DNA of 64,000 bases, from positions 128,001-192,000 of the forward strand of contig CAVRCF010000004.1 of the NCBI GenBank assembly GCA_963719505.1, read 5' to 3'. Below the pieces are notes generated by a model, which saw nothing but the letters and a program-made list of their open reading frames with translations, was not told the DNA's origin and did not search any database. The position numbers and the translations under genes were made by a program. Position 1 is the first letter of the stretch; every line of letters begins with the position of its first letter. Source of the DNA: Halobacteriovoraceae bacterium. GTDB lineage: Bacteria > Bdellovibrionota > Bacteriovoracia > Bacteriovoracales > Bacteriovoracaceae. Shown one piece after another: positions 8,014-21,509 of this stretch.

Positions 8014-8030
8014 AGCAACTTCCGTGCCAA
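8014..8030 (-). promoter_or_regulatory. Sigma54 (-24/-12) promoter for the 7121..7978 lipoprotein gene
   Basis: Minus strand TTGGCAC-GGAAG-TTGCT matches TGGCAC-N5-TTGCW; predicted +1 near 8003, about 25 nt before the ATG. Confidence 0.75.
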
Positions 8031-14800: not shown

Positions 14801-15868
14801 ATGAGAGTTTTTCTTTTAGTTGCACTTATGTGCGCAAGTTTTACTGCTTTTGCTGACGAAGAAGCAGCTGGTGTTAGAACCAGTAAATGGGATGGATATA
14901 ATAATCCGTTTAGATTAGACGCAAATTTTGAAGATCGATTTAGTTCAATGCCACTTTCTGGAGACACATCCAAGTCTGGTTTTGGTTGGCCAGCTTATTT
15001 TTGGGCGAATGAAAAAGGTGGAATTGCTCAAAGATGGTCATCAAATGATCCCCAACATTTTAAATATGAATCACCAACTTTATACGCACTCCAGTCCATG
15101 AGCCCAGAGAAAATCAATGAACTCTCACCGGCTGAAAAATTCGATATCATGAATGGAAGATACGATTATCCAACAGTTGAAAAAGTTTGGGGACAGACAA
15201 GTAGAGGAGCGAAAGATTGGCATGGTATCTGTCATGGGGCAGCACCCGCGGGTCTTCACCACAAAGAGCCGTCAGCTAAAACGATTACTAATGCTGATGG
15301 AATTAAAATCACTTTTCACTCAAGTGATGTAAAAGCTCTTACTGCATATTACTACGCTAAGATTTCAGATCTTCCTTCAACTCAGATTGGGCGAAGATGT
15401 TTTATGGGAAGGTTTTCTCCTTTTAGAGGAAAGGGCTGCAAGGACGTCAATCCGGCTTCCCTCCATATCATACTCACAAATAGACTAGGACTTACTAGTA
15501 AAGGCTTTATCGCAGATATTGATAAATTGAAACAAGTTTGGAATCATGTTGCGGTAAAATACGAATCAAAAATTGTAGCGACATTTAAAGATCTTGATAG
15601 ATCTGTGGATGGAACTCATAGAAGAATTCAAGTTGTGACAAATGTTTCTTATACAGGTGGAGTTGATCCTTCTCAATTTGCAGTTCTAGGAACTGAGAAT
15701 GAGAAGTGGGATGTGAGAACCTATGAATACGTTCTTGATCTTGATGTTAATGATAAAATCATCGGTGGTGGTTGGATATCAAGCGAGAGACCTGACTTTA
15801 TATGGGTTAAGGGTAAAGAAACGTTCCTAGATACCTATTACGGTGCAGTTAAATCTCTATTGAAGTAA
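14801..15868 (+). CDS. Secreted transglutaminase-elicitor (GP42)-like Cys protein
   Basis: Signal peptide; LSPAEKFD, WHGICHG, VWNH, YEYVLDLDVNDKIIGGGW...RPDFIW resemble oomycete TGase-elicitor motifs. Confidence 0.7.
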   Translation: MRVFLLVALMCASFTAFADEEAAGVRTSKWDGYNNPFRLDANFEDRFSSMPLSGDTSKSGFGWPAYFWANEKGGIAQRWSSNDPQHFKYESPTLYALQSMSPEKINELSPAEKFDIMNGRYDYPTVEKVWGQTSRGAKDWHGICHGAAPAGLHHKEPSAKTITNADGIKITFHSSDVKALTAYYYAKISDLPSTQIGRRCFMGRFSPFRGKGCKDVNPASLHIILTNRLGLTSKGFIADIDKLKQVWNHVAVKYESKIVATFKDLDRSVDGTHRRIQVVTNVSYTGGVDPSQFAVLGTENEKWDVRTYEYVLDLDVNDKIIGGGWISSERPDFIWVKGKETFLDTYYGAVKSLLK

Positions 15869-15870
15869 TT

Positions 15871-15982
15871 TAAGCTGGATAAGAGAATAAGAAGTTTTAG
15901 ATAAGTTTTGTGAGATTAATAATATTCATTATTAATCGAAGAGCTTTTGAGGTGGGGTAGAAGAATTCTTCTATCCAGCTTA
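15871..15982 (-). ncRNA. Candidate sigma54-dependent structured sRNA, copy 1
   Basis: Ends TAAGCTGGATA...TATCCAGCTTA are complementary; internal hairpins; paralogue at 20138-20249; begins at the predicted +1 of a sigma54 promoter. Confidence 0.6.
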
Positions 15983-15992
15983 CTCTTTATAA

Positions 15993-16009
15993 AGCAAGGC
16001 TTGTGCCAA
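15993..16009 (-). promoter_or_regulatory. Sigma54 promoter of sRNA copy 1
   Basis: Minus strand TTGGCAC-AAGCC-TTGCT; IHF-like site (plus strand TAAAGTATTGAAT) at 16023-16035. Confidence 0.8.
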
Positions 16010-16051
16010 GAACTAACAGTTCTAAAGTATTGAATTTAAATGTTTATTGAG

Positions 16052-16089
16052 TGGCCAAGTTGATCCAGGATCAATTTGGCCATTTTTTT
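16052..16089 (+). terminator. Rho-independent terminator
   Basis: TGGCCAAGTTGATC-CAG-GATCAATTTGGCCA hairpin followed by T7. Confidence 0.7.
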
Positions 16090-16275
16090 GGGGTAAAAAG
16101 TCACTGTGTAATAATTAACGACAAGTGATCTAAAATACTTTGCTGACAACAATTACACTTATAAGCTCGTCCTTTCGACATTTAACAACTGTTGTATCTA
16201 TTAATGGAAGTATTTGTTAGAGCCAAAGAAATGAGTTTAATAAAATAAATATAAAGCACTGAAGGTCACATTACA

Positions 16276-17514
16276 TGCAGTAGTCACGACTTGCGTTTAC
16301 AAAACGCTCTCAGTCAAAATATAAAACTATTGTAAATCTATTTCGCTACTTTCTACCTCGGTGTCAAAAACCATTTCTTTATACAATTTTACTCCTTCTG
16401 AAAATGTTTCATAAGGAGTTCTTCCTTTGCACCTCTTTCCTTGATTTGTTCTGTCGAAGTTGTAATCCTTCATGTAAAAATCAAGATCATACTGCAGTCC
16501 TTCTAGGCTCGTATAAAGCTTCTTTCTAAATGCAACACTATAAAATTCATTTTGGATGATTTGATTTAATTTCTCTACTGATCCATTCGTTTGAGGATGT
16601 CTTACTTTTGTTCGACTATGTTCTATATCATTCAAGTGCATGAATAATTGATAGTGATGCGCATCTTTGTGACCACAATATTCTCGTCCATTGTCTGTCA
16701 AAATCCTAAGAACTGAGATCCTGTGTTCGTCGAAGAATGGAAGTACTTTGCTGTTTAAAAAATCTGCCGCAACAGTTTGAGTTTTATCCAGATAGAGTTT
16801 TGCAAACCCCACATTAGAATAGGTATCAATTCCTGTTTGCTGATAAATTTTTCCAACACCTTTAATGTAGCCAACGTAGTAAGTATCTTGGGCGAATAGA
16901 AATCCAGAGTGATGAGTCTCTACTTCGCCATGAGCTTCTTTCTCTTGCTTTCTCTCTTCGAGTGCTTGGACTTGAGACTCAGTTAAAATATTATTCTCCT
17001 GAGCCGACCATTTCTCTAGACGTTTTAACCTTAGATGTTTTACTTGTAAGTCATGCCTGAGCCAGATTGAGCGAATTCCGCCAGCGCTAATAGCAATATT
17101 GCTTTTTCTTTTAAGCTCATTCGAAACTCGAACTTGTCCATGGGTAGGATACTGTAAAGAATAGTCTAGAACAGCTTTCTCGACTTCTGGAGCGCACCTG
17201 TTTCCAACTCTTGGACCTCTTCTAGACTTTTCTATAAGGCCTTCAAGTCCGTCTTCTTGTATGGCAGTTTTAATATCGTAGTAATGCTGTCGGCTTACAC
17301 CAAGTCTTTTGCATGCTTTTGTAATATTTTTTAAAGTGTCTGCAAATTCAACTATGTTGAGCTTACGATTAATGAGATACTGTTGTTGAGTCATGTGTTT
17401 TCCTTTTGTTAAAAATTGTTTTGTGGTTACTACAATTTTAACTGAGAACGCATGACTCAAATATTACCGGCAATATTTAGTCAGGTGTTGTAAACGCAAT
17501 TCGTGTTACTTCCA
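16276..17514 (-). mobile_element. IS481-family insertion sequence
   Basis: Imperfect IRs TGCAGTAGTCACGACTTGCGTTTACAA / TTGTAAACGCAATTCGTGTTACTTCCA; direct repeat CATTACA at 16269-16275 and 17515-17521 (or TTACA if the element ends at 17516). Confidence 0.85.
16327..17394 (-). CDS. IS481-family transposase
   Basis: HTH NITKACKRLGVSRQHYY; rve core QDTYYVG, ILTDNGREYCG, PQTNGSVEKLN; ATG at 17394 with SD AAAGGA. Confidence 0.93.
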   Translation of the reverse strand: MTQQQYLINRKLNIVEFADTLKNITKACKRLGVSRQHYYDIKTAIQEDGLEGLIEKSRRGPRVGNRCAPEVEKAVLDYSLQYPTHGQVRVSNELKRKSNIAISAGGIRSIWLRHDLQVKHLRLKRLEKWSAQENNILTESQVQALEERKQEKEAHGEVETHHSGFLFAQDTYYVGYIKGVGKIYQQTGIDTYSNVGFAKLYLDKTQTVAADFLNSKVLPFFDEHRISVLRILTDNGREYCGHKDAHHYQLFMHLNDIEHSRTKVRHPQTNGSVEKLNQIIQNEFYSVAFRKKLYTSLEGLQYDLDFYMKDYNFDRTNQGKRCKGRTPYETFSEGVKLYKEMVFDTEVESSEIDLQ

Positions 17515-17532
17515 CATTACAGGCTAGGGTGT

Positions 17533-18423
17533 CTAATATAGCTTTGTATCTACTGACGAACCAAAAGTATTTTCATAAACTCTTCTGGATTTAACTAAGT
17601 GTCCAGCTCCGTAAATCACAAGAACTTTATTGTACTTTTTGAGACTTTTATCAATTAATTGAACCAAATATCTTTCTCTAATCATTCCTATATGTGCAGA
17701 AATTTTTTGAAAATAGGTACCCGCACTACCGTTGATCGGAGCTACATCCATTGATCCCAAGTCTAAGTAACTTCGCTTCAAACTGGAATGTAACTCATAC
17801 CATTCCTTGAACTGGTTAAAAGTAACAATATTAGGAGTATTCAAGTTATTTGAGAATCTAGTTAGATATTTTGAGATCTGTGAAATCTGATTAGTTATAT
17901 CTATTTTTTTTTGTTTCTTGAGCTGCGGGATCATCCTTAAAAGATAAAAGCCAACAACATCAATTTCTTGAAAGCCTATCTCGTTGAGACCTTTTAAAAT
18001 CATCGTGTCCTTAATTTCACCACCAGCAAAAGGAATATTCTTTTGATTTGCAATAAATGCTGCGTAAGAAGGCTCTCCACACTTTCTAAACCTTGATGTG
18101 CTACACTTGTTGGCATAATCAATATACCACTGAGGACTAACTTCTTCATTGTTTTGAAAACCTTCTAATATAAGAAAATCAGGTTTTTCCTTTAGTATTA
18201 CCTGTTCAATTGTTTTGAAAGTCTTACTATCCATTGAATTTTCATGATCGGCAGCAACGAAGATTAGTTGTTTATCATTCTTTGAGAAGACAGAAATATA
18301 AGGAGCTTCATATGATTCCTGTTTCTGATAATCTAAACTCCAGTGGCGAATTAGGGATTCATTCAAGCTTATATTTGAGCAACTAATCTTTAGGAATACA
18401 AAGCAAATAAGAATAAACTTCAT
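17533..18423 (-). CDS. Hypothetical exported protein
   Basis: 296-aa ORF with N-terminal hydrophobic/lipobox-like segment; PDFLILEG and VIYGAGHL faintly resemble TraB/GumN-like folds. Confidence 0.6.
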   Translation of the reverse strand: MKFILICFVFLKISCSNISLNESLIRHWSLDYQKQESYEAPYISVFSKNDKQLIFVAADHENSMDSKTFKTIEQVILKEKPDFLILEGFQNNEEVSPQWYIDYANKCSTSRFRKCGEPSYAAFIANQKNIPFAGGEIKDTMILKGLNEIGFQEIDVVGFYLLRMIPQLKKQKKIDITNQISQISKYLTRFSNNLNTPNIVTFNQFKEWYELHSSLKRSYLDLGSMDVAPINGSAGTYFQKISAHIGMIRERYLVQLIDKSLKKYNKVLVIYGAGHLVKSRRVYENTFGSSVDTKLY

Positions 18424-18600
18424 AATTTTGACAATATCATGGTTTGATTAAAATGTTTGTCAAAATCACAATTAGGTGTAAATTTAACATTAGCTAAGGA
18501 TAAATAACGTCTTAAGACCCAGCGGTAATTTAAAGGTGGAAAGGATAAATTCTATCTTTAGGTGAACAGTCTTAAGGCTTGAGTTAAATTGCTGAAAATA

Positions 18601-18631
18601 AAAAAGGCTAGGATTTTTACTCCTGGCCTTT
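18601..18631 (-). terminator. Rho-independent terminator of 18682..18996
   Basis: Minus strand AAAGGCCAGGA-GTAAAAA-TCCTAGCCTTT followed by a T run. Confidence 0.6.
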
Positions 18632-18653
18632 GTGATTTCTTTTGATCTTTTAG

Positions 18654-18683
18654 TTTGAGTATCTTATTTTTGAGTATCTTATT
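18654..18683. repeat. Perfect 15-bp tandem duplication
   Basis: TTTGAGTATCTTATT x2 (18654-18668, 18669-18683), abutting the stop codon of 18682..18996. Confidence 0.8.
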
Positions 18684-18996
18684 AATGACAACGATTACCT
18701 ACAAACTTAGCTTCAGCAACGACCTCGGCGGTTTGTCCTACCTGAACACAAGTCACTTCAAATGATGATTCTTGCTTTGCTCCTTCGTAGTAGAGAAATC
18801 GCCAATTTGCTTTTTGCCTAGCATCTGCTTTAGCTAAAGCTTTCATAGCTTTAAGAACTTCATTTTCGGGGTTACTACAGCTACCTGAAATATTCGAAAA
18901 TTCAACTTTTCCAACAAAGCTCTCTTCAAAGCAGCCAGCGAATGCACTTTGGCCGGCAAGACTTACTAAAATTAAAAGTATCCTCAATTTCTTCAT
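18682..18996 (-). CDS. Small secreted hypothetical protein
   Basis: SD AAGGAG, signal peptide ending AFA, 4 Cys. Confidence 0.65.
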   Translation of the reverse strand: MKKLRILLILVSLAGQSAFAGCFEESFVGKVEFSNISGSCSNPENEVLKAMKALAKADARQKANWRFLYYEGAKQESSFEVTCVQVGQTAEVVAEAKFVGNRCH

Positions 18997-19172
18997 GCTA
19001 TCTCCTTGCCCTTTAGGCTTTTGTGAAAACGAATTGTTACCTCAACGATTCGTTTTTATCTATAATTATTGGTCTAAATCGTTGATGACCAATCTTCTGA
19101 ACAATATGTACCTATATCGATGTTATATGCATAGTTTACAAATACTTCTACTTGATATAGGTATTTGTTTAT

Positions 19173-19994
19173 ATGATAAGACTAAATGATTTGAATAATT
19201 TTATTGAAGCAAGTGGTTTTCCTAGTTTAAGTATGGCCTCTAAAAAGTTAGGTGTAACTCAACCTGCTCTTTCTGAGTCGATTAAAAGGCTCGAGAAAGA
19301 TTTAGAAACAGTACTCTTTTATCGAACAAAAAATGGAATCTCTCTGACACCTGAAGGGAAGAAAGCTCTTGAGAAAAGTAAAAGCATCAGAATAATGCTA
19401 AACGATCTTGGAGAGATGAGGAGTGATCAAAAACAACCACTACTCACTTTGGGGTGTCATCCTGCTATTGGTTCTTACTTCCTTCCATATTTTATAAAGC
19501 GAGTTAATCACACCATCCCTGAAGGGAGATTCAAAATTACTCACGATCTTTCTAGAAATATTCAACTACAAGTTCAGTCGGGGGAAATTGACTTTGGTAT
19601 TATAGTCAATCCTTCTCCAAATCCGGATCTCATTCTCAAGCATATAGGGGTAGATATGGTGCGAGTTTGGAAATCAAAAAAGAAAGGGGATGACAACAAA
19701 ATCATTGCTGACTTAGACCTTCTACAAACTCAAAATATTTTGAACAAATGGAAGCGTGCTCCTAAAGAGTTAATGTCTATGTCAAGCCTTGAGATTATCG
19801 CGAGAATGACCAATCAAGGTTGTGGGTATGGGATTATACCAGAGAGAACGGTCAAACTTTTAAACTTTGATTTAGAAATAGTTAAAGGGAGTCCTTGTTT
19901 TAAAGATGAGTTTTACCTCGTTTATAGACCTGAATTCGGAAAGACTAGATATGAGAAAGATGTGATCAAGCTGATTGTTGAATCTTTTTCTTGA
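19173..19994 (+). CDS. LysR family transcriptional regulator
   Basis: HTH SMASKKLGVTQPALSESIKRLEKDL...LFYR...LTPEG. Confidence 0.92.
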   Translation: MIRLNDLNNFIEASGFPSLSMASKKLGVTQPALSESIKRLEKDLETVLFYRTKNGISLTPEGKKALEKSKSIRIMLNDLGEMRSDQKQPLLTLGCHPAIGSYFLPYFIKRVNHTIPEGRFKITHDLSRNIQLQVQSGEIDFGIIVNPSPNPDLILKHIGVDMVRVWKSKKKGDDNKIIADLDLLQTQNILNKWKRAPKELMSMSSLEIIARMTNQGCGYGIIPERTVKLLNFDLEIVKGSPCFKDEFYLVYRPEFGKTRYEKDVIKLIVESFS

Positions 19995-20137
19995 TATAAA
20001 GAGACGAGGTTTTTGAAAAGAACAAAGGTCCTGATCAAAAAAATTAATAAGCAAAATGTCCAATTTGATTATATCTCAGAATTTTTTTTGAATACTATAG
20101 ATGAACAGAGAATCTTTTTTTCTTAGAAAAAAAGTTC

Positions 20138-20249
20138 AAGCTGGATAAGAAGAATGAGAATTTATAGGTTAGTTTTGTGAGATTTGAAACATTCGTGACA
20201 AATCGAAGAGCTTTTGAGGTGGGGCAGAAGAATCCTTCCATCCAGCTTA
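20138..20249 (-). ncRNA. Candidate sigma54-dependent structured sRNA, copy 2
   Basis: Ends AAGCTGGAT...ATCCAGCTT; the core AATCGAAGAGCTTTTGAGGTGGGG (plus strand) is identical to copy 1; same +1 register. Confidence 0.6.
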
Positions 20250-20259
20250 CTATATATGA

Positions 20260-20276
20260 AGCAAGCTTCGTGCCAA
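20260..20276 (-). promoter_or_regulatory. Sigma54 promoter of sRNA copy 2
   Basis: Minus strand TTGGCAC-GAAGC-TTGCT; IHF-like TAAGTGATTAATT at 20290-20302, same spacing as copy 1. Confidence 0.8.
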
Positions 20277-20397
20277 GGTGTTTGATGTCTAAGTGATTAA
20301 TTTTATTATGTGAATTTGGTGTCACTAAAGCATCGTGCCCCTAAACTCCGACTTTTTGACTCCAATTTAAGTCTCAATTTGCCTGACTTCGACTTTT

Positions 20398-21093
20398 CTA
20401 AGGTAAATCTGTGTAGTCTTCCAAGACCGAAAACTTCGAACTAACGACTCTTAAAGCACCTTCAGTATTTTCAAAATGTGGTAATTCTAAAGCGTATTTT
20501 GCACAGTACTCACGGTAGTAGATACTTTTTTGGGGGTGACGAGGATTGCTTAAGTTTATTAAGCGTGGAGTTTCAAGTTGGTAAATCAGTTTAACAGCTT
20601 TGGCGACGTCAATTCGAGCAATAAGATTCAAAGGGTCATTACCATTTTTGAGACCCTTTTTACCAGCAAGATACATTCCGGGGTGTGAACCCTCTGAGTA
20701 AAGGCCACTAGGTCTAATAATAAATGAATGGTCAAAATCAGCTAATAGTTTTTCAATCTTAAAAAGCTTATGACCATTTTCAGTATTTGGTTGAGGTGTC
20801 TTATCTTCGGTGACGACACCTTCATTCTCTCCATAAATTCCCGTTGAGCTTATGAGAATAACTTTCTTATCCTTTACTTCATTTAACCTTTGAATCCAAA
20901 CGTCAGTTGAAAGAGCACTTGGTGGGATACAAAAAATATAGGTATCAAACTTTAAACCAACTAGTGAATCCACATTAAGGTCTAGCTTGATAGAGCCACT
21001 GTGTGGTGTTGTTTTTGAACCAGTAATATCACCTTCAGGAAATTGGTCAATAATAAGTTTTCCAAGCCTTCCGGCTCCAATGACAAGGATCAT
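20398..21093 (-). CDS. NAD-dependent epimerase/dehydratase family protein (YeeZ-like)
   Basis: IGAGRLG, ISSTGIYG, RPSGLY, LNLIARIDV. Confidence 0.8.
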   Translation of the reverse strand: MILVIGAGRLGKLIIDQFPEGDITGSKTTPHSGSIKLDLNVDSLVGLKFDTYIFCIPPSALSTDVWIQRLNEVKDKKVILISSTGIYGENEGVVTEDKTPQPNTENGHKLFKIEKLLADFDHSFIIRPSGLYSEGSHPGMYLAGKKGLKNGNDPLNLIARIDVAKAVKLIYQLETPRLINLSNPRHPQKSIYYREYCAKYALELPHFENTEGALRVVSSKFSVLEDYTDLP

Positions 21094-21509
21094 TTGAGTG
21101 CGTCTTTTACCATTTGCGAAGCGAGCTTTCCATCAAAGCGACCTTTGATTTGTGGTTGGAGGTGCTTCATAATTTCTCCCATATTTGGAGAATCAAGATT
21201 CCCTTTAATCTGATCAATAAGATCTTTAACCTCTTGTTGATCTAGGGACTTCGGAAGAAATTCAGAGAGAACTTTGTGTTCTGCATATATCTCTTTTTTA
21301 GCTTCACTATCATCGGGGTATAGATCAGCAGAGTCTTTAACTTTTTTGGCGTAAGAGATAACGATATCAATTTCCGGTTTTGGATTCCCTGAGACATCAT
21401 TTTCAATAAATAACTTCTTTACGTATCTGAGAGCATTGAGACGAGTTTTATCTCTGGCCTTCATTGCCAGCTTGATCCCTTCGTTTATTTGTTCCTTAAG
21501 ATCACTCAT
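21090..21509 (-). CDS. GatB/YqeY domain protein
   Basis: AMKARDKTRLNALR, LSEFLPKSL, MGEIMK...GRFDGK. Confidence 0.88.
   Translation of the reverse strand: MSDLKEQINEGIKLAMKARDKTRLNALRYVKKLFIENDVSGNPKPEIDIVISYAKKVKDSADLYPDDSEAKKEIYAEHKVLSEFLPKSLDQQEVKDLIDQIKGNLDSPNMGEIMKHLQPQIKGRFDGKLASQMVKDALK

Follow-up and report, generated by a model that had tools for sequence, protein, structure and literature searches.

Two diverged copies of a 112-nucleotide (nt) element lie on the minus strand of a 64,000-nt stretch of DNA from a Halobacteriovoraceae bacterium (assembly GCA_963719505.1, contig CAVRCF010000004.1, positions 128,001 to 192,000), which we call the window. What do these twins encode, what switches them on and on what would their products act? 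An earlier note, drawn up from the letters of the DNA alone, took them for a candidate new family of small RNAs (sRNAs), driven by sigma-54 promoters and built around an invariant core resembling the anti-Shine-Dalgarno (anti-SD) sequence. Here we report a computational analysis of that proposal. Sequence comparison places the twins in a family of structured non-coding RNAs, some 105-116 nt in length, that had not been described before and is seen so far in one Bdellovibrionota family of the GTDB. The reading of their function that we favour, and hold with roughly even confidence, is that they are sRNAs controlled by sigma-54 and an activator, acting in trans and independently of Hfq through exposed C-rich motifs.

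Copy A occupies 15871..15982 (-) and copy B 20138..20249 (-), each 112 nt long, with the positions and features first described for them. The two are 83% identical across 142 of 151 nt, promoter included (BLAST within the genome, E 3.1e-36); all other within-genome matches to the element have E >= 0.01. Computed folds agree with the proposed end-to-end stem and both hairpins. In copy A the ends pair to form stem P1, UAAGCUGGAU(A)/(U)AUCCAGCUU(A). Hairpin P2 (AGAAG-AAUU-CUUCU) is followed by an unpaired CCCCACCUC motif, by hairpin P3 (GAUUAAUAAU-GAAU-AUUAUUAAUC) and by a G-poor tail. Copy B has the same architecture: its P2 is GGAAG-GAUU-CUUCU, and its P3 (GAUUUG..CAAAUC) differs in sequence from that of copy A and retains the pairing. 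The minimum free energy is -23.0 kcal/mol for copy A (z -5.6; 0 of 200 shuffles as good) and -23.9 kcal/mol for copy B (z -3.55; 1 of 200). Both contain the same 24-nt core, CCCCACCTCAAAAGCTCTTCGATT, of which the window, searched at <=3 mismatches, has just these two occurrences, against a shuffle expectation of 0.00. Calling this core invariant was right for the two window paralogues but not beyond them: in a relative of the same genus (G002) it reads TCCTACCCAAAAAATTCTTTGATT, and it differs across the family.

Does the element belong to a known family of RNAs? Searching the whole window with cmscan against Rfam 15, which includes Qrr, gave no match at the gathering threshold. Between 15600 and 20600, relaxing the search to E <= 10 gave six weak matches, none of which overlaps either element, and a third copy of the element elsewhere in the genome likewise has no Rfam match on it. 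No known family, Qrr included, therefore falls on the elements at either setting. Their relatives were sought with two covariance models restricted to the RNA itself, promoter columns being excluded from both. Within the same GTDB family, model R1, built from three sequences, was run on 151 genomes and yielded 26 full-length matches, which come from 18 genomes and 7 of the 69 genera. Model R2, built from 26 sequences, yielded 13 matches among 80 loci of a lipoprotein gene in public genomes, discussed below; the 13 are at the closest orthologues of that gene, and four of them gave new RNA sequences. In 24 other families of Bdellovibrionota, represented by 127 genomes, R2 yielded nothing. These searches scored the best 25 first-look candidates per genome, so that their negatives are soft. 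Copy A scores 134.2 bits with R1 and 116 bits with R2; copy B scores 126.3 and 105.6 bits.

Genomes with the RNA carry one to three copies. The genome studied here has three, the third being a diverged R1 match outside the window (G000:C1:990103-990210, minus strand), and five other genomes have two or three (G069, G078, G112, G121 and G164). The single homologue in G002 shows 78% identity, an intact promoter and compensatory changes in the hairpins. Among 41 relatives, BLAST recovered G002 only, plus two spurious short matches, one of which, at locus L010, sits in apparent coding sequence. An exact-pattern scan of genome contigs for the promoter and 5' end matched only the G002 contig, the pattern being too strict for the family. 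One public contig carrying both the RNA and the lipoprotein locus (L119, CAXPDR010000034.1) is labelled as a Flavobacteriaceae metagenome-assembled genome. Its RNA is identical to that of G112 (L018), and the contig is probably mis-binned.

All three helices of the fold show covariation. When the family is aligned by fitting to the model, 91.7% of cells pair, compared with 69.6% in shuffles; double changes are seen at all 24 pairs, including 10 of 10 in P1, and sliding the partner by 1-3 columns lowers pairing to 32-49%. Since such an alignment leans towards its own model, the test was repeated on 27 sequences aligned with MAFFT, which is blind to structure. There RNAalifold recovers P3, with 9 pairs, and a P1 lengthened to 13 pairs; 22 of 24 pairs show compensatory changes. 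P2 and the three-pair extension of P1 are mutually exclusive, and each is supported by covariation in one of the two alignments. The predicted molecule is closed, with its first bases pairing with its last in a three-helix, junction-like form. G-U pairs are frequent (the last P1 pair of the model-fitted alignment, for instance, has GC:10 GU:10); they would read A·C on the opposite strand and fit only the strand on the promoter side.

The earlier note had allowed that homologues might conserve a peptide frame instead of pairing. We find no conserved start codon or frame: the only recurrent AUG, in the P3 loop, is present in 8 of 28 sequences, and insertions and deletions among family members are not multiples of three. 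A mechanically called open reading frame (ORF) of 76 aa, with a GTG start, covers copy B and its promoter (20095-20325, minus strand). Because copy A has no counterpart, this ORF is unlikely to be a gene. The family thus stands as a set of structured non-coding RNA genes, present in several copies in several genomes.

What would transcribe these genes? The sequence TTGGCAC-N5-TTGCT lies at 16009-15993 and at 20276-20260, in each case ending 10 nt ahead of the element's first base. In copy A the promoter (15993..16009, minus strand) reads TTGGCACAAGCCTTGCT, with GG at -24 and GC at -12, and its predicted +1 is 15982; in copy B (20260..20276, minus strand) it reads TTGGCACGAAGCTTGCT, with a predicted +1 at 20249. 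The sigma-54 promoter claimed for each copy is thus present, and it is kept throughout the family. TGGC-N8-TGC precedes all 25 R1 matches for which upstream DNA is available, at a distance from the RNA start of 26-27 nt in 24 cases and of 30 nt in the remaining one. Because neither covariance model holds promoter columns, this conservation is an independent check on the family.

Further upstream, each copy has an IHF-like box: TTCAATACTTTA within AAATTCAATACTTTAGA at 16021..16037 (-) for copy A and TTAATCACTTA at 20288..20303 (-) for copy B. The spacing of the box, first described as identical, differs by 1 nt between the copies when measured to TTGGCAC. Across the 25 upstream regions the box shows up as conserved columns, AtTTcA...a.TTa, between -33 and -19 relative to TGGC. 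Beyond it are putative enhancer dyads, or upstream activating sequences (UAS). Copy A has two, GGCCAAATTGATC and GATCAACTTGGCC, 16 bp apart at 16053..16081 (-); copy B has a weaker UAS with a degenerate dyad, GGGCACGATGCTT, bearing two mismatches at 20325..20340 (-). The dyad GGNCA-N3-TGNCC, at <=1 mismatch, gives 14 matches in 11 of the 25 upstream regions, against 0.65 in shuffles. These centre at -68 and -52 from TGGC and are often 16 bp apart. The -24/-12 element, the IHF-like box and the dyad arrays together make up a full sigma-54 architecture, which points to control by an enhancer-binding protein, as the earlier note supposed.

The genome encodes rpoN, 10 enhancer-binding proteins with REC, GAF or PilZ-GAF inputs, and three genes of the HU/IHF family. 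None of the 10 could be assigned as the cognate activator, since none is adjacent to a copy. Sigma54_activat domains were absent from the 48 neighbouring ORFs selected for a Pfam scan, out of 103 ORFs in the 26 loci. At four loci (L017:1-1356, L036:1745-2299, L027:577-933 and L028:445-801) REC proteins are encoded immediately upstream of the RNA; one is a fragment of a hybrid kinase and has three REC domains. These genes could hint at a signalling input or be a coincidence.

Other promoters of the genome share parts of this design. A relaxed sigma-54 pattern matches 44 times (a raw count), in many cases before protein genes. Most of the intergenic matches carry an extended TTGCT-(c/t)(t/a)-TATA(G) just 3' of the -12 element. 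A match at window position 8029 (-) is followed by a protein gene and shows a partial dyad at -63. At G000:C1:1223416 (+), equivalent to L039:617, a sigma-54 promoter bears the same enhancer array as the RNA genes, its three dyads standing at -101, -86 and -70 with spacings of 15-16 bp. Downstream of this promoter is a DksA/TraR-type zinc-finger gene (ORF L039:815-1306), which may be co-regulated with the sRNAs. The leader of this gene, about 170 nt long, is unusually rich in GGA: 185 nt hold 8 GGA, where the background mean is 2.3, and 0.35% of windows reach that count.

How might the RNAs act? Each gene is self-contained, comprising an enhancer dyad array (presumably for an NtrC-type activator), an IHF-like site, a sigma-54 promoter and an RNA whose P1 encloses P2, an unpaired C-rich stretch, P3 with its GAAU loop and a tail of A, U and C that is poor in G. 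A signal would activate the cognate enhancer-binding protein, which together with IHF and sigma-54 RNA polymerase would fire all the copies; having several copies might add dosage or provide enhancers of differing strength. The RNAs would then act in trans without Hfq. Their exposed CCYACC(U), represented by CCCCACCUC in the window copies, would pair with G-rich, SD-like sites on mRNAs and so lower the translation or stability of those mRNAs.

The case for such a mechanism begins with the motif itself. Unpaired CCYACC(U), given also as CCYAYC, is found in 26 of 28 sequences and occurs at least twice in 13 of them; its mean predicted probability of being unpaired is 0.89, compared with 0.51 for the whole RNA. 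Other unpaired elements are conserved too: the GAAU loop of P3, UCYCAA after P3, and AUCUAAAAAUUCUU. G makes up 5.1% of unpaired columns and 20.8% of paired ones. The 3' tail of the 16S rRNA is GGAUCACCUCCUUU, and CCACCUC of the window copies has CACCUC in common with the anti-SD. To that extent the likeness to the anti-SD asserted for the core stands, but the family motif, CCYACC(U), has the complement AGGURGG, which is SD-like only. As for independence from Hfq, its family (PF17209) was detected in 0 of 41 genomes of the phylum, among them this one (83.5% complete) and 32 of high quality, with the control positive in five reference genomes. ProQ was not found in this genome, which does encode CsrA.

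Several results weigh against sRNAs that pair in trans under activator control. Two of the 28 members lack the C-rich motif, and its CCUACCU form is not a true copy of the anti-SD. Predicted targets do not stand out in a search of 3648 start regions of this one genome, called by a rough heuristic and weak evidence either way. Seed duplex energies reach -14 kcal/mol or lower in 363 start regions, compared with 164-452 for six shuffled seeds, and the best seed duplex, at -26.2, falls within the -22.2 to -31.7 of those controls. GAGGTGG and AGGTGGG precede start codons in 9% of cases, compared with 13-17% for ordinary SD words. The upstream dyads of copy B are degenerate, and no gene for an enhancer-binding protein was found adjoining any copy. 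No intrinsic terminator follows either copy on the minus strand, so that the transcript could be longer or be processed. Finally, 10 of the 26 family loci have a conserved, co-oriented lipoprotein gene 95-280 nt downstream of the RNA, and the RNA precedes that gene in 13 of the gene's 80 loci.

Two individual targets were considered and rejected. For the DksA-type leader the seed energy lies at the background median (fraction 0.435) and the tail energy at 0.10; for the lipoprotein start region, complementarity was inconsistent on inspection by eye. Of the translational repression first proposed, the conserved and accessible seed-like motif is borne out, but complementary sites are not enriched over controls in this one genome. 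The RNAs may still repress translation in trans.

The absence of a target signal above controls would also fit a different role, that of an RNA which binds or titrates a protein in the manner of CrcZ or RsmY/Z. The unpaired stretches, the GAAU loop or an AAGGAU-type P2 would then sequester a KH- or S1-type binder of C- or A-rich RNA, or, at P2, CsrA. Several separate unpaired blocks are indeed conserved (CCYACCU, the GAAU loop, UCCCAA and AUCUAAAAAUUCUU), CsrA is encoded, and P2 carries a conserved AAGG(N)AUC. Sponges, however, carry many GGAs in loops, whereas each of these RNAs has one to three, mostly within stems. The RNAs are short and have at most two C-rich motifs, and no candidate binder emerged. 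Protein sponges driven by sigma-54 are known in CrcZ and CrcY (PMC6292655), but Hfq, the partner of CrcZ, was not found in the 41 genomes of the phylum. We consider a titrating RNA unlikely, though still a serious alternative to the trans-acting sRNA that we favour.

Could the RNA instead be the leader of a neighbouring gene? In the window it stands alone. A gene of the TGase_elicitor family (14801..15868, plus strand) is convergent with copy A and ends 3 nt from its 3' end, so that copy A has no downstream mRNA; a homologue of this gene also lies beside the RNA in G002. After copy B comes a convergent gene for a LysR regulator (19173-19994, plus strand). With convergent genes following both, the window copies are not mRNA leaders. 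Upstream of copy B are a 231-aa ORF without a Pfam family and YqeY (20398..21509, minus strand), which occur in the same order in G002. The stretch between the copies (16327..19994, about 4.2 kb) has no counterpart at the syntenic locus of G002, which carries a single copy. Besides the LysR gene the stretch contains an insertion sequence (IS)-type transposase with HTH_29 and rve domains (16327-17460, minus strand) and two ORFs without a Pfam family (17533-18423 and 18682-18996, both minus strand).

Gene order explains how the twins arose. The window reads YqeY, 231-aa ORF, copy B, 4.2-kb stretch, copy A, TGase_elicitor; G002 reads YqeY, 233-aa ORF, RNA, redoxin, TGase_elicitor, with redoxin at the site of the 4.2-kb stretch. 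From this synteny the twins are a local duplication of promoter and RNA, now parted by a 4.2-kb insertion. The duplication is not recent, since the copies are only 83% identical.

Elsewhere a cis-acting role is harder to set aside. At 10 of 26 loci, that of this genome's third copy among them, the order is ECF sigma factor, ORF of about 100 aa, RNA and co-oriented lipoprotein gene, whose product has a metzincin-like HEWTHKxGxxH motif. One could therefore suppose that the RNA is ancestrally the 5' leader of this lipoprotein gene, controlling attenuation, stability or translation of a sigma-54-driven downstream gene, and that the window copies are orphaned remnants. The lack of a terminator after the window copies would suit such a leader, as would the redoxin gene of G002, which begins 20 nt past the RNA on the same strand. 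Yet downstream genes vary among loci, and the window copies, with several others, have kept promoter, structure and motifs while facing convergent or unrelated genes. Between RNA and lipoprotein gene, moreover, seven loci (L016, L033, L030, L018, L032, L024 and L056) have a conserved TTTAG-N15-17-CCGATA and a conserved run beginning TTCTTCCCCC. The former resembles the FliA-type (sigma-28) attack-phase promoter described for Bdellovibrio, TTAAG-N16-CCGATA (PMC3627812), and for this reason the lipoprotein gene probably has a promoter of its own. In L024 a clear hairpin and U-run also separate the RNA from the gene. The RNA may act in cis at the lipoprotein loci, but as an account of the family we judge a leader role rather improbable.

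The promoter itself could be misread. TTGGCA might serve as a -35 element and the A/T-rich TATA(N) as a -10, so that sigma-70 drives the RNA; copy B reads TTGGCA-16-TATAGT, 10 of 12 positions being sigma-70-like, and most members have a TATA-rich stretch 3' of the -12 element. A sigma-70 scan, however, is passed by copy B only. The invariant GG...TGC, at exact spacing in 25 of 25, is a sigma-54 signature that would fall in the spacer of a sigma-70 promoter, and the TGCT + yATATAG extension recurs in this genome at other promoters of sigma-54 type, ahead of protein genes. IHF-like boxes and enhancer dyad arrays are also typical of sigma-54 promoters, and we regard transcription by sigma-70 as very improbable. 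It is scarcely credible that the element is a mobile repeat, of the miniature inverted-repeat transposable element (MITE) or repetitive extragenic palindromic (REP) kind, spread by the neighbouring transposase and giving no functional RNA: its ends do form inverted repeats of 10-11 bp, copy A has a transposase gene 345 nt upstream and the copies bracket an insertion, but there are only three copies in 3.69 Mb (one to three per genome in the family), the ends covary so as to keep pairing rather than one sequence, the duplication extends past the inverted repeats to take in promoter, IHF box and part of the UAS, synteny is conserved across genera and neither copy is flanked by target-site duplications.

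If the family does consist of trans-acting sRNAs under sigma-54, which known RNAs does it resemble? In mode of control the nearest analogues are Pxr, the closest, and Qrr. Pxr of Myxococcus and Cystobacter is described as a 108-nt non-coding RNA with a sigma-54 promoter and a multi-stem-loop fold (PMC5568312). Its Cystobacter paralogues stand in tandem, and every one has a sigma-54 promoter to itself; the same account presents Pxr as a life-cycle gatekeeper of narrow range in a predatory, formerly 'delta-proteobacterial' group in which it reports no Hfq homologue (PMC5568312). Size, promoter, paralogues, multi-stem-loop fold, narrow range and the failure to find Hfq are thus points of likeness. 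Pxr, however, adjoins an activator gene, nla19, and the window family has no adjacent activator gene. Compared by description, Pxr has three serial stem-loops, whereas here the ends pair and close the molecule. A further difference is that the genome here is AT-rich, at 37% GC. No kinship to Pxr in sequence or structure was detected, in that no Rfam family falls on the elements at E <= 10, a result that bears on Pxr only if the library includes its model.

Like Qrr1-5, the quorum-regulatory RNAs of Vibrio, the family has several redundant genes for RNAs of about 100 nt, in which a sigma-54 promoter and an NtrC-type activator site accompany every copy and a conserved single-stranded region is common to the copies. 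The 5-3-5 geometry of the dyad is that of the LuxO site; the dyad sequence is different. Qrr RNAs need Hfq, whereas an Hfq gene was not found here, a comparison of gene presence and not of biochemistry. The last stem-loop of Qrr is a rho-independent terminator, of which there is none after the window copies, and the end-to-end stem that closes the window family sets it apart. In Vibrio a qrr promoter is described as activator-dependent (PMC10162802).

Other sigma-54-linked or C-rich RNAs resemble the family less closely. GlmY and GlmZ of Enterobacteriaceae are reported as two homologous sRNAs with sigma-54 promoters (PMC3045617). The likeness lies in those promoters and in there being two homologous sRNAs. 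GlmY and GlmZ promoters use the activator GlrR and IHF. Their sequences, however, are unrelated to the family, and nothing here suggests a circuit in which one RNA, like GlmY, is a decoy for the protein RapZ and the other, like GlmZ, activates glmS. RsaE/RoxS of Firmicutes act without Hfq, pairing unpaired C-rich motifs with G-rich sites. They differ in promoter type, fold, phylum and C-rich motif (CCYACCU here, not CCCC), and have no Rfam match on the elements; G-rich target sequences are described for the RsaE-rocF interactions (PMC6158497). CrcZ/CrcY and NrsZ of Pseudomonas and Azotobacter, described as RpoN-linked or NtrB/C-induced non-coding RNAs (PMC6292655, PMC4253122), are longer, act through Hfq/Crc titration or processing, and show no sequence match here. 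Membership in the Pxr, Qrr, GlmY/Z and RsaE classes fails where tested, on Rfam matches, an adjacent activator gene, Hfq or the terminator. In kind, the family nevertheless joins the established sigma-54-driven, multi-copy sRNAs, namely Pxr, Qrr and GlmY/Z.

What would such RNAs do for a predator? One idea, which we think doubtful, is that they are the equivalent of Pxr or Qrr in the marine predatory Bacteriovoracaceae, a dedicated activator sensing prey or nutrient state and the RNAs, independent of Hfq and using their anti-SD-like C-rich motifs, gating the switch between attack and growth phase. If so, one to three sRNA copies and the DksA/TraR-type gene with the same enhancer array would form a small regulon. 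This would fit the genomic setting that the family keeps, next to an ECF sigma/anti-sigma pair and to a gene, probably FliA-driven, for a secreted metalloprotease.

Full-text searches, with supplementary files outside them, found no paper on an sRNA in Bacteriovoracaceae or Halobacteriovorax, and Hfq was not detected in the 41 genomes sampled from the phylum. For these reasons the family offers a well-defined entry to RNA regulation in predatory bacteria without Hfq, supplying at once a promoter, an enhancer motif, a structure and a candidate seed. The conserved enhancer dyad is a handle for finding the cognate activator and its regulon, and with it the family may provide a route to learning which signal the sigma-54 activators of such bacteria read.

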